A stretch of 24,000 nt of DNA from Hyphomonadaceae bacterium. GTDB taxonomy: Bacteria > Pseudomonadota > Alphaproteobacteria > Caulobacterales > Hyphomonadaceae. Under the pieces are notes generated by a model. It was not told where the DNA came from. It was given only the letters and a program-made list of their open reading frames with translations, and made no database searches. The stretch is from NCBI GenBank assembly GCA_965263325.1, contig CBDHGY010000002.1:2495606-2519605 (forward strand), in the 5' to 3' direction. The position numbers were made by a program, and so were the translations under genes. This document shows, piece by piece, positions 5,001-8,156 of this stretch; position 1 is the first letter of the stretch, and each line of letters begins with the position of its first letter.

Positions 5001-7892
5001 TCAGCCAAGAGTGCGCAGCTCATCCAGCCGCTCGCGCAGATCCTTGAGGTCGCGGTCGCGGCGGTGATAGCCGGTTTCCTGAACACCCGCGAACGCATCT
5101 TTGTGGTGCGCCTCGGCCGTATCGAGCAGCTGTTTTTCCTCCGCCGTGAGCGGGTCGGTTCGCCAGACCGCTGCCGGGGCAGGGGCGGATTTGCCGCCGA
5201 AGATACGCGCGAGGATGGACCGTTTGGCGGGCTCAGCCCCGGGCGGCAGCGGACGTACCGGTTCCGGCCAGGGATCATCTGGGGCAGGCTGGCCATCGAC
5301 CAGCGGAACAAGCGCCTCAGGCGGCGCGCCGGGAATTTGAGCGAGGCATAGCCGCGCCGATTCCAGGTGCCAGTCGATGAGGAACAGCCCCATGCTGCCG
5401 CGTGAGGCGATATCATGGGTCTCGGCGAGATCGTCGGCAGCGGTTTTGAGGTTCGTTGCATCGCCGCCGCACTCAAAGGCCTGGCGGTGGAATTCAGCCC
5501 GGGCGAGGAGGCCCTGAGCGAGATAGATATCCTGGCTCGCCGCGCGCAGGGCCGTGACCGCCACGTCTAGGCGCGGGCCAGCAGCCCCGGCCGCCTCGGC
5601 GTCGCCATGCGCGGCGCGCAGAGCAAGCGCGCGGCCGTCGGCGAGCGCGAGGGTGCCGCGAGCCAACATTGAAACGCCGGCCACTTGTTTTTGGATTTCA
5701 TCTTCCCAAGCCGCCCGCTCCTGCACCGCCTGCGCTGCGCCGCGCGCCAGCAGGAGGTCGCAATAGAGGTAGCCTTGCAGTGAATAAAGGCGCAGAAACT
5801 GTGGCTCTTGCTTCGCTTGGCGGGCCTCGGCTTCGGCGAACAGGGCGGCGGCGGCTGGCTCTTGCCCGGCCTCGGCGAGGACGTTGGCCAAGGAGGCGCG
5901 GTTCACCATCATCTGGAAGCCATCGCCGGAGCGATCGGCATAGGCGACGGCCTCTTCGCCTGCCTCCACGCCTGCGGCGACCCGGCCGATGGCGCGGCGC
6001 AGTTCTGAGAGATTGGCTCCTTCAATCGCTGCAAATTTCCAATTTCCGGCATCGACGTGCATCTTTATGGTCTCGGCAAGCGGTGCTTCCGCCTCGGTGA
6101 GCCGGCCCAGTGCGCGTAGGGCGAAGGCGGCGAATCCCAGCGCCACGGAGCGGACGGGTGCGGTGAGCGCCTCGTTCGGTGCACCCCAGGGCGGATCGAA
6201 AAAATGCGCCAGTGCGCCGAGATTTGCCGCATAGGCTCCAAGGTGTTTGTTGATGTACGCTTGGTTCCCCCGTCGCACACGCCGGGCGTAGACCTCATAC
6301 CACGCCTCTTGCAGCCGCCCCGCCTTGCAGCCATGATTGATCGCATGGAAAAGTGGTTGCATCTCGGCGAGTGTGTCCGGCAACTCCTTCTCCGGAACGG
6401 CCTGATAGTGCCGGTACAGCCGCTCATGCGCCGCGCGCCAGGAATCCGGGCTGGTCTGCTGGAGGGCTTTGCCGAAATGGCTGCGCACGACGGGGTGGGC
6501 GTCAAGTGCGTCCGGATCGGCTTCATCTTCTGAGCCGAGCAGTTTCAGTTCCCGCAAACGGGATTTGGCGGTTCTGAGGCGCTTATCTCTCTGCGCAAGA
6601 GATGCAGCGTGCCATTCATCTGTCAGCCCCGGGATCGGCTCACCCTCTAGCAGGGCGCGCACCGCCCCGCCATCAGCCGGGCGGTCAAACAAGCCCACGA
6701 TAGAGAGCAACATGCGCTCTACTTCGCCCCGGCCATTGCTTTCGGTTTGCAGCGCTTCGAACCGGGCGATATAGCCCGCCATGATTGCGCCCGCCCGCTT
6801 GGCGAGCCGCGCGGTCTGCTCTGAGGCGGCCAGCTCTTCTTCTGTGTCTATTATATCCTGAAGGCCGAGATGGTCGCGCCGGGCAATGTCACCTGCTTCC
6901 ACCGCGTCGATATACGTGCCGAGCAGGGTCACCGATAGGGCGTGGCCCTGCACTTCCTCGACCGCTTTTTGCATGTCGTCTTTCGCGCCCCAGCAGCCTA
7001 GATGGCGCAACAGGTGCGCGCCCGCGCGGGGGCTGAGACTGTCGAGTGCGCGGGAGCGGACATCGGGCTCGCTGCGGTTTTCAAGCTCCGGCAAGTGCTG
7101 GCGCGAGGTAATGACGACAAGACCCGGATGGCCGAGGGCAAGATCCTGAATCAGGCGCTGGAGGCCTTTGTCCTTCAGGCGGCCCTTGTTCACATCCGGC
7201 AGCGATTGCAGCGGCTCGATCCCGTCCAACAGGAGCAGGGTTCGGGTCTCTTTCAGCCGCGCGGCAAGCAGGCGCGCGCGGGCGATGGCATCGCCTGGCA
7301 GCTCTCCGAGCTCGCCCATGAACCGCAAGGCCTCGATGATGAAGTTTTCAGAGTCAGCGTTGCGGTTCTCGCCGGAACCCTGCGAATAGGCTGACCAGCC
7401 GAGGACTTTCTCGGCGTGGGGGAAATCTGTCTCGGCCAGCCGGTCAACCAGGCGCCGCATCAGCGCAGTTTTGCCCGCTCCGCCAATCGCATGCAGCACG
7501 AGGATGTTGGTCTTGGCGTCGTCGTCCGCCTCCGGCGCGCACGAGGCCCACGCATCCAGCAACAGGCTTTCTTCCGTATCGCGCCCGGTGAGGAATCCAG
7601 ATCCGGAGGTGAGAACAGCGGGGAGGCTGACCCTCTGCTGGGCCAGCAATGCCTCGGTTGGCGGGCGCGGTGCCAGTTTCTTTCGGAGCGCGCGGCGTTC
7701 CTCGGCGTCTGAGACCTGTTTCAGCCGCGTCTCGATCTGAGCAACGAGAACGGCCACGTCCCAGTCGACCCGGTTCAAGCGATAGGTGAGCCCTTGCAGC
7801 TCCTCGGTGAAGTCATCAGGCCCGATATCCTCAAGGCCAACGGGTAACAGTTTCGATTTACCCGACGCATATGTCGCCTCATAGCGGCACAT
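5001..7892 (-). CDS. STAND NTPase (NB-ARC/APAF-1-like P-loop) with C-terminal TPR-like helical repeats; its first ~45 aa look like the C-terminal half of a TIR domain
   Basis: 963-aa ORF. NB-ARC-type motifs, in order:
- Pre-P-loop FLTGRDTEESLLLDAW.
- Walker A HAIGGAGKTAL (GGAGKT is the rc of 7467..7484, checked by hand).
- Walker B TLLLLDGIEP (about 7215..7238).
- RNBS-B-like LVVITSRQ.
- GxP-like VQGHALSVTLLG.
- MHD-like LDAHPVVRSHF.

About 450 aa of Ala/Leu-rich TPR-like repeats follow. The N-terminus (MCRYEATYASGKSKLLPVGLEDIGPDDFTEELQGLTYRLN) matches the distal part of TIR_2-type domains. Confidence 0.85.
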   Translation of the reverse strand: MCRYEATYASGKSKLLPVGLEDIGPDDFTEELQGLTYRLNRVDWDVAVLVAQIETRLKQVSDAEERRALRKKLAPRPPTEALLAQQRVSLPAVLTSGSGFLTGRDTEESLLLDAWASCAPEADDDAKTNILVLHAIGGAGKTALMRRLVDRLAETDFPHAEKVLGWSAYSQGSGENRNADSENFIIEALRFMGELGELPGDAIARARLLAARLKETRTLLLLDGIEPLQSLPDVNKGRLKDKGLQRLIQDLALGHPGLVVITSRQHLPELENRSEPDVRSRALDSLSPRAGAHLLRHLGCWGAKDDMQKAVEEVQGHALSVTLLGTYIDAVEAGDIARRDHLGLQDIIDTEEELAASEQTARLAKRAGAIMAGYIARFEALQTESNGRGEVERMLLSIVGLFDRPADGGAVRALLEGEPIPGLTDEWHAASLAQRDKRLRTAKSRLRELKLLGSEDEADPDALDAHPVVRSHFGKALQQTSPDSWRAAHERLYRHYQAVPEKELPDTLAEMQPLFHAINHGCKAGRLQEAWYEVYARRVRRGNQAYINKHLGAYAANLGALAHFFDPPWGAPNEALTAPVRSVALGFAAFALRALGRLTEAEAPLAETIKMHVDAGNWKFAAIEGANLSELRRAIGRVAAGVEAGEEAVAYADRSGDGFQMMVNRASLANVLAEAGQEPAAAALFAEAEARQAKQEPQFLRLYSLQGYLYCDLLLARGAAQAVQERAAWEDEIQKQVAGVSMLARGTLALADGRALALRAAHGDAEAAGAAGPRLDVAVTALRAASQDIYLAQGLLARAEFHRQAFECGGDATNLKTAADDLAETHDIASRGSMGLFLIDWHLESARLCLAQIPGAPPEALVPLVDGQPAPDDPWPEPVRPLPPGAEPAKRSILARIFGGKSAPAPAAVWRTDPLTAEEKQLLDTAEAHHKDAFAGVQETGYHRRDRDLKDLRERLDELRTLG

Positions 7893-7898
7893 GGGACG

Positions 7899-8156
7899 TC
7901 AGAGCGCCGTTTTCGACCAGAGGGCCACGATGATGGCGGCCTCTTCCATCTTGCGGGTGATGGCACCGTGCCAGTCTGTGCCGGAATCGTCCATCAGCTC
8001 CTTGTCATACCAGACGGACATGTCTGCAGCCTCAAGGGCCGCAGCAAGTTCGGCCGCATAGCCGAACTGCGTTTCGTCTTTATGGGCGTATGATATGAAC
8101 ACGTCGAACGGTTCGATTGTATCCATCTCATCCTTTTGAGAAACACCCTCGGCCAT
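7899..8156 (-). CDS. TIR domain protein fragment (N-terminal half of a TIR domain, ended by an in-frame TGA)
   Basis: The ORF track gives 7899..8234. I prefer the internal ATG at 8154-8156 (MAEGVSQKDEMDTIEPFDVFISYAHKDE...) because AAGGGGA lies about 6 nt upstream. TIR betaA motif: FDVFISYAHKDE. Then VWYDKELMDDSGTDWHGAITRKMEEAAIIVALWSKTAL*. The domain is cut where the S-x-W/M-C-x-x-E helix should follow. Confidence 0.75.
   Translation of the reverse strand: MAEGVSQKDEMDTIEPFDVFISYAHKDETQFGYAAELAAALEAADMSVWYDKELMDDSGTDWHGAITRKMEEAAIIVALWSKTAL

Follow-up and report, generated by a model that had tools for sequence, protein, structure and literature searches.

A probable recent nonsense mutation in the TIR domain of an NLR-like gene from a Hyphomonadaceae bacterium

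Introduction

Does an in-frame stop codon inside an immune-type gene mark a freshly broken gene, an error in the assembly, or a working arrangement in two pieces? This question is raised by a locus of a Hyphomonadaceae bacterium (GenBank assembly GCA_965263325.1, contig CBDHGY010000002.1). The stretch of DNA analyzed here, referred to as the window, is 24,000 nucleotides (nt) long and spans positions 2,495,606 to 2,519,605 of the forward strand of this contig. On the minus strand of the window, two open reading frames (ORFs) of 85 and 963 codons follow each other across a single TGA codon. We find that a single gene occupies the locus and encodes a bacterial NLR-like immune protein, which contains a TIR effector domain, a STAND (NOD-type) P-loop nucleoside triphosphatase (NTPase), and a TPR-like sensor. 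The 85-residue and 963-residue products in public data are the two halves of this TIR–STAND–TPR gene, and they should be annotated as a single disrupted gene with an internal stop. The TGA is most probably a recent, lineage-specific nonsense allele at codon 86, ancestrally a serine codon, that inactivates the TIR effector, and we assign this reading a probability of about 0.72.

A first-pass annotation of the window, made from its letters, had put forward four causes for the stop: a recent nonsense mutation, a sequencing or assembly error, low-level UGA readthrough acting as a dosage throttle, and termination followed by reinitiation that yields a split TIR domain. The nonsense mutation is favored by the analysis below, and a base-call error is possible. 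The throttle and the split TIR found no positive support, because homologues do not share the stop, no ribosome-binding site precedes the second ORF, and recoding signals are absent.

Results

Junction sequence

The minus-strand junction reads TGG TCG AAA ACG GCG CTC TGA CGT CCC ATG TGC CGC TAT GAG. This is letter for letter the junction quoted in the first-pass annotation, and the ORF coordinates and the translation agree with its statement that both ORFs lie in one frame. The features at and around the junction are as follows.

7902..8156, minus strand: upstream ORF of 85 sense codons, encoding the N-terminal part of the TIR domain (betaA, alphaA, betaB, alphaB, betaC, and a short helix)
7899..7901, minus strand: in-frame TGA, codon 86, with C as the next base (UGA-C context)
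7890..7892, minus strand: ATG that opens the downstream ORF; in the ancestral protein it encoded Met89
7878..7880, minus strand: GAG, Glu93, invariant and putatively catalytic-type glutamate of TIR helix alphaC (family alignment)
5001..7892, minus strand: downstream ORF of 963 codons plus TGA, encoding the C-terminal part of the TIR domain, the STAND/NOD NTPase, and alpha-helical TPR-like repeats
7674..8108, minus strand: complete TIR domain of the uninterrupted protein, residues 17-161 (Pfam TIR_2 and structure model)
8157..8291, minus strand: intergenic promoter and leader between the TIR-STAND gene and the divergent histidine-kinase gene, holding the Shine-Dalgarno sequence AAGGGG

The genuine start of the gene is the ATG at 8156..8154, with AAGGGG ahead of it at a suitable spacing. 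In contrast to this true start, the internal ATG at 7892..7890 has no GGAG-like or Shine-Dalgarno sequence in the 20 nt ahead of it (AAACGGCGCTCTGACGTCCC), in line with the earlier remark that none precedes the second ORF. No match to the sigma-70 consensus was found in the leader (8157..8291), and no promoter-like or terminator-like sites were found near the junction.

Homologues at the stop site

We searched about 5.8 billion proteins, and 184 relatives were returned. The closest ones, P0002 to P0004, share 82-84% identity with the window product, are encoded by single ORFs of 1049-1050 residues, and cover the whole query. These orthologues can be aligned with it over their full length, and the junction contains no indel. 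Across 70 aligned N-termini, the nearest relatives have Ser in the column of the stop (…ALSRPMCRYEA…), other sequences have Ala, Ser, Lys, or Gln there, and no gap begins or ends at this column. In the DNA, the orthologous codon is TCC at loci L001, L002, L006, and L007, TCG at L008/L009, and TTG (Leu) at L003, and every homologue that aligns across the site has a sense codon there. The L001 (1050 residues) and L002 (1049 residues) genes occupy the same chromosomal locus as the window gene, in the order histidine kinase, gene, Pyr_redox_2, VTT, and DUF547. L006 and L007 carry two further alleles at the same locus, between the histidine-kinase and Pyr_redox genes. The first-pass annotation had proposed aligning the closest homologues across the junction, and the four same-locus alleles give a sense codon, TCC, in genes that are single ORFs at this site.

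The codons that follow the site, for Arg-Pro-Met-Cys, are also conserved in the relatives at the DNA level, with no indel near the junction. Met89 is an internal residue (..SRPMC..) in all close relatives, so the ATG is not a newly evolved start. Similarly, the C that follows the TGA is the first base of the ancestral Arg codon, which is CGT or CGC in all close relatives. A protein start at the junction is seen in 1 of 119 homologues, namely the window's own product P0001. The 963-residue P0001 and the 85-residue P0121 are singleton clusters in public data and come from the same 3.23-Mb contig. A search with the 85-residue fragment gathered 3 candidates and yielded the fragment itself. A conserved split architecture is ruled out, as the start at the junction is unique to the window product, and no homologue was found that shares the stop and has a ribosome-binding site and start of its own. 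The stop, as judged by these sequence comparisons, is private to one assembly. They also support an ancestral state of one ORF with Ser or another sense residue at codon 86, as the first-pass annotation had argued from the missing Shine-Dalgarno sequence.

Three homologues looked like candidates for a split or TIR-less form and were rejected. P0103 is a contig-edge artifact. In P0076, the reading frame shifts by +1 at a different site, close to the end of a contig. P0065 has a frameshift in the linker between TIR and NTPase, with an intact TIR domain directly upstream in another frame; at this frameshift, in L010 3400..4120, the gene caller had placed a spurious ORF of 158 residues on the opposite strand. 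Two of the same-locus alleles are also broken, in both cases further downstream than the window gene: the L006 allele (2501..5730) ends early, at 712 residues, and the L007 allele (2501..6932) is split into 643 and 340 residues. The adjacent Pyr_redox gene of L007 is likewise split, and the artifact contigs have 2.6-4.7× coverage, so the L006 and L007 breaks are probably assembly indels.

TIR domain

The Pfam family TIR_2 (PF13676) matches the 85-residue piece over profile positions 1-62 of 122, with 47.2 bits against a gathering score of 28. When the two ORFs are conceptually fused, the match crosses the stop, covers residues 19-121, and extends to profile position 104 with 62.1 bits. We modeled the intact orthologue P0002, which is 84% identical to the window product, from an alignment of 76 sequences (mean pLDDT 90.2, pTM 0.82). 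In this model, betaA spans residues 19-22, betaC 75-80, a short helix 82-86, alphaC 88-99, and alphaE 134-161, which places codon 86 at the junction of betaC and alphaC. According to the orthologue model, the stop therefore divides the five-stranded TIR sheet 3+2: betaA to betaC lie upstream, and alphaC to alphaE, with betaD and betaE, lie downstream. The five-stranded flavodoxin-like fold (betaA to betaE) is complete in the orthologue model and is complete on neither of the single window products.

Glu93, which lies seven codons 3′ of the TGA and is Glu5 of the downstream ORF, is one of just six invariant columns in a family alignment of 25 sequences. A single-sequence search of the PDB with the TIR domain was too weak to place this residue, and its placement comes from the family profile compared with PDB sequences. 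This comparison lines up Glu93 with the WCLDEL glutamate of RUN1/RPV1 and with the same position in PdTIR and in the bacterial TIR 7uxr, and the TIR domains of SARM1, AbTIR, and ROQ1 are also matched across this stretch. The catalytic glutamates of such TIR enzymes include RUN1 E100, SARM1 E642, and AbTIR E208. The alignments support Glu93 as the catalytic-type Glu of a TIR NADase helix alphaC. Thus the claims of the first-pass annotation about the domain hold: the stop falls inside the TIR domain, Glu5 of the downstream ORF is aligned to the catalytic helix of known TIRs, and neither product has an intact TIR, with Glu93, betaD, and betaE all on the downstream piece. A TIR fold with its catalytic residue complete upstream of 7899, which that annotation had named as a finding that would speak against it, is not what we observe.

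An Ala replaces the invariant alphaC Glu in one relative, P0076 (L005 1..330, 46% identical; …DEVADAM…). The +1 frameshift of this sequence lies in a GGG run two codons after the Ala, near the contig end of a metagenome assembly. P0076 may represent a further TIR that has been inactivated, or its assembly may be faulty.

Selection downstream of the stop

We compared the ratio of nonsynonymous to synonymous substitution rates (dN/dS) among the alleles. Over the whole gene it is 0.19 for the window against L001 and 0.21 for the window against L002. For the 963 codons 3′ of the stop, the ratios are 0.19 (95% confidence interval 0.15-0.23) and 0.22 (0.18-0.27), respectively, compared with 0.26 (0.20-0.33) over the same codons for the intact pair L001 and L002. 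The implied neutral fraction of the evolution downstream of the stop has an upper bound of about zero. An outgroup-polarized count gives 28 amino-acid changes on the window branch, which is no significant excess over the approximately 17 that a clock predicts (p = 0.14). The window gene contains no additional stops or frameshifts. The low dN/dS downstream suggests that the TGA is very young relative to the allele synonymous divergence (dS) of about 0.5, or is a base-call error, or lies ahead of an ORF that is still under selection. The first of these needs the fewest assumptions.

NTPase and sensor regions

The Walker A (GxxxxGK[ST]) and Walker B (hhhhD) motifs of a STAND NTPase are both intact in the window gene, and a TPR-like region follows them.

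7467..7484, minus strand: Walker A motif GGAGKT; G225, G226, G228, and K229 do not vary across the 76 aligned sequences
7221..7238, minus strand: Walker B region LLLLDG; L307, D311, and G312 do not vary across the 76 aligned sequences
5004..6371, minus strand: C-terminal alpha-solenoid (TPR-like), the presumed sensor, hypervariable among alleles (model and Foldseek)

Pfam NACHT scores 23.7-25.7 bits, which is under the cut-off of 26.7, and AAA_16, NB-ARC, and TPR_10 are likewise below their gathering scores. Precomputed NACHT or AAA_16 hits are present on several homologues. The P0002 model contains the TIR domain, an alpha/beta NTPase with helical domains, and, from about residue 596, a long solenoid of all-helical repeats. 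Foldseek searches with this model returned an archaeal STAND-TPR protein (6mfv, E-value 2.6e-10), the core of the plant RPP1 resistosome (5e-8), and Apaf-1 (1.5e-7), as well as CED-4, MalT, and the bacterial Avs3 (8dgc, E-value 5e-6). The solenoid was matched to the TPR proteins LGN and APC. PADLOC hits are confined to the TIR region (PDC-S66, SAVED_TIR, bSEFIR, and ThsB), and NCBIfam gives hits in the TIR region alone, far below threshold. As judged by sequence and model, the gene belongs to an uncharacterized clade among the known TIR–STAND–TPR genes, which are Avs-like and NLR-like.

The gene shares with Avs and other bacterial NLR-like proteins the order of effector, STAND NTPase, and TPR-like sensor, the intact Walker motifs, and signs of horizontal mobility with atypical guanine plus cytosine (GC) content. 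Unlike Avs genes, the window gene lies amid housekeeping-type genes with no recognizable defense island, and its copy is interrupted by a stop. TIR is documented as an effector type of Avs proteins, with a mechanism unresolved as of 2024 (PMC11350192), and most prokaryotic defense STAND sensors are TPR-like (PMC13581612). With plant TIR-NLRs such as RPP1 and ROQ1, the protein shares a TIR domain followed by a NOD and the model match to the RPP1 resistosome core, but its sensor is TPR-like rather than built of leucine-rich repeats, and sequence identity is just 9-14%. With the TIR NADases RUN1, SARM1, and AbTIR, it shares the family-profile match and an invariant Glu on the position of the catalytic-helix Glu. 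In contrast to these enzymes, the window TIR is truncated ahead of this Glu, and its NAD+ cleavage activity is putative. A 59%-identical full-length homologue, P0009, is encoded directly downstream of an AbiEii-family gene (L008 1219..2166), and this neighborhood is the sole context of defense-island type seen for the clade.

Discussion

Translation from the start at 8156 ends at the TGA after 85 residues, and a recent nonsense allele of this kind would be a loss-of-function or strongly hypomorphic one. If it works as plant TIR-NLRs and bacterial Avs proteins do, the uninterrupted product would detect a phage protein via its TPR region, the NTPase would then drive oligomerization that brings the TIR domains together, and the clustered TIRs would cleave NAD+, resulting in abortive infection or signaling. 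A background of full-length protein could leak from the interrupted allele by near-cognate reading of UGA-C (about 0.1-1%) or by occasional reinitiation at the ATG 6 nt downstream. Such a trace of full-length protein, or of reinitiation at a low level, is physically likely, and there is no sign that the leak is a selected feature. Like an ordinary nonsense pseudogene, the window gene has a single in-frame stop, intact orthologues, and no compensating signals. Unlike an ordinary nonsense pseudogene, it has no secondary lesions and no relaxed dN/dS. If the lesion is as young as we suppose, this would explain why the gene shows no further decay, and the gene would then stand at the very start of pseudogenization, unless the stop is an error. 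Events of this sort are ordinary, and the gene is of a known kind. The lesion illustrates how the effector of an immune gene with potential self-toxicity can be inactivated, at a stage before further decay has set in.

Several observations weigh against this reading. The TGA is two nucleotide steps from each of the observed orthologous codons, and an immediate ancestor such as TCA has to be assumed. The simplest path would be a synonymous change from TCC to TCA followed by TCA to TGA, which is plausible because the neighboring codons also differ at synonymous sites. A same-species genome that could date or confirm the stop did not come up: the scan of genome contigs gave just one locus, 66% identical, and the scans of metagenome proteins and for the exact junction in DNA returned nothing. 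The low dN/dS downstream of the stop fits a product that is still expressed and selected equally well as a recent lesion. As for the silencing of an immune effector, the STAND-TPR part matches no Avs (Avs1-5), bNACHT, or other system model in PADLOC, and we infer the defense role of the clade from its architecture alone, by analogy.

The possibility that the TGA is a sequencing or assembly error also counts against a nonsense allele. The true genome would then have a sense codon, such as TCA, and one intact gene of 1051 codons. The allele is known from one assembly, the rest of the gene is without any decay, and relatives from metagenome assemblies contain many artifactual breaks, all of which an error would accommodate. 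However, those breaks are all indels in contigs of 2.6-4.7× coverage, whereas the window lesion is a substitution that preserves the frame, and no homopolymer or repeat is present at the site. Phase variation is ruled out on the same ground. Moreover, the split TIR-STAND gene is the sole real gene in the 24-kb window that is broken by an in-frame stop: the 16 other long ORFs are intact, and five flanking genes are within 2 residues of the lengths of their orthologues. We consider an error unlikely, and a real mutation several times likelier.

Could the stop instead be part of a functional design? For the TGA allele to be kept by selection, the weak UGA-C stop, a restart at the ATG, or both would have to limit a toxic TIR-NLR to a very small amount or to a TIR in two pieces. 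The sole pointer to this is the unrelaxed downstream ORF of 963 codons (omega 0.19-0.22), and we regard selection of either kind as improbable. UGA-C is known from the E. coli literature as the leakiest, or weakest, bacterial termination context, and a selected throttle would rely on near-cognate tRNA-Trp reading it to supply a small, tolerated dose of the toxic protein. Readthrough in bacteria occurs at 10^-3 to 10^-2 and reaches up to about 10% under stress (PMC10057733). The UGA-C context of the stop, the lack of relaxed constraint on the downstream ORF, and the variable, non-catalytic nature of the residue that the stop replaces would all suit such a throttle. On the other hand, the stop is common to no homologue, the C after the TGA is merely the first base of the ancestral Arg codon, and a very recent mutation accounts equally well for the missing decay. 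The RNA gives no stimulatory structure: the 81 nt around and after the TGA have a minimum free energy of -24.7 kcal/mol, with z = -0.85 relative to shuffled sequences, and no Rfam family is found at gathering score within the window. A throttle is therefore quite implausible. Were the stop real, fixed in the population, and leaky, the gene would offer a natural instance of a suicide effector dosed by stop-codon leakiness, which is currently unsupported.

A split system would require the 85-residue fragment and the 963-residue product from Met89, expected to begin with MCRYEATYASGK, to assemble non-covalently into a working TIR. The in-frame ATG is 6 nt past the stop, near enough for a terminating ribosome to restart by translational coupling, and the downstream ORF is intact and constrained. 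But no Shine-Dalgarno sequence precedes this ATG, which goes back to an internal Met codon of the ancestor and lies within a stem of the predicted RNA fold. Furthermore, the cut falls inside the sheet, 3+2, instead of at a domain boundary. No independent homologue is divided there either, and the TIR-less relatives are contig-edge or frameshift artifacts. We judge a split TIR to be as doubtful as the throttle, if not slightly more so. The insertion of selenocysteine, or a genetic code in which UGA is sense, has in its favor that the codon is UGA and has hardly any probability. TGA ends 5 of the 17 long ORFs of the window, including this very gene at its own end, so the genetic code is standard, as it is in the Hyphomonadaceae to which the host belongs. 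The LepA protein of the host shows 86-88% identity to LepA of Hyphomonas and Henriciella. The aligned residue in homologues is Ser, Ala, Lys, or Gln, never Cys, and it is not catalytic. In addition, the best hairpin begins inside the stop codon itself and does not have the geometry of a selenocysteine insertion sequence (SECIS), and no tRNA, hence no tRNA-Sec, is found within the window. The normal TGA stops, the lack of a SECIS-like fold, and the lack of Cys in homologues rule out both of these options.

Other observations at the locus

The alleles of the TIR-STAND gene were compared over window 5001..8338, L001 7900..11153, and L002 5150..8403. Between the window and L001/L002, the flanking genes have a dS of 0.9-3.1, whereas the TIR-STAND gene has a dS of 0.51. 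Between L001 and L002, the flanks have a dS of 0.05-0.14 (95-100% nucleotide identity), whereas the gene has a dS of 0.28 overall and 0.4-0.7 in parts. In codons 600-900, which belong to the TPR region, dN/dS between alleles is 0.3-0.7, and it reaches 0.4-0.7 for L001 against L002. Four or more alleles are present at the same locus in one metagenome. As the divergence of the gene is decoupled from that of its flanks, these observations suggest that related genomes exchange an immune-type cassette, which is kept polymorphic at an unchanging position. We believe that allele exchange together with hypervariability at a fixed locus is a more promising lead on the evolution of bacterial NLR-like sensors than the stop codon.

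In 150-nt segments that span window 8338..8039, the promoter and the first ~120 nt of the coding region share 94-95% identity with L001/L002, while the adjacent histidine-kinase gene is just 65-83% identical to its counterparts there. This highly similar 5′ region represents either conserved regulatory sequence or the 5′ edge of a cassette that was exchanged recently. The TIR-STAND gene has a GC content of 62-68% (0.73 at third codon positions), compared with about 50-55% in the surrounding genes, which is consistent with a horizontal origin. From the kinase to the Rieske gene (window 9720..11289), the block of Glyoxalase, CMD, and adh_short genes, with a small ORF, that is found in L001/L002 is not present. 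Instead, there is an ORF of 235 residues (9806..10513, minus strand), which has no Pfam or NCBIfam hit, together with non-coding sequence.

A perfect 10-nt inverted repeat (GACGGACATG / CATGTCCGTC, window 8154..8163 and 8013..8022) would pair the start-codon region with codons ~45-48. By a rough estimate, about 0.2 such pairs are expected by chance per 600 nt. The counterpart in L001/L002 has one mismatch and one wobble, and since the pairing is imperfect there, the repeat is probably fortuitous. We also note a TGA at window 1278..1280 (minus strand) that separates two open segments of the same frame, of 125 and 425 codons. This site was considered as a second broken gene and ruled out, as synteny with L002 shows the two segments to be the adjacent genes rnpA and yidC.

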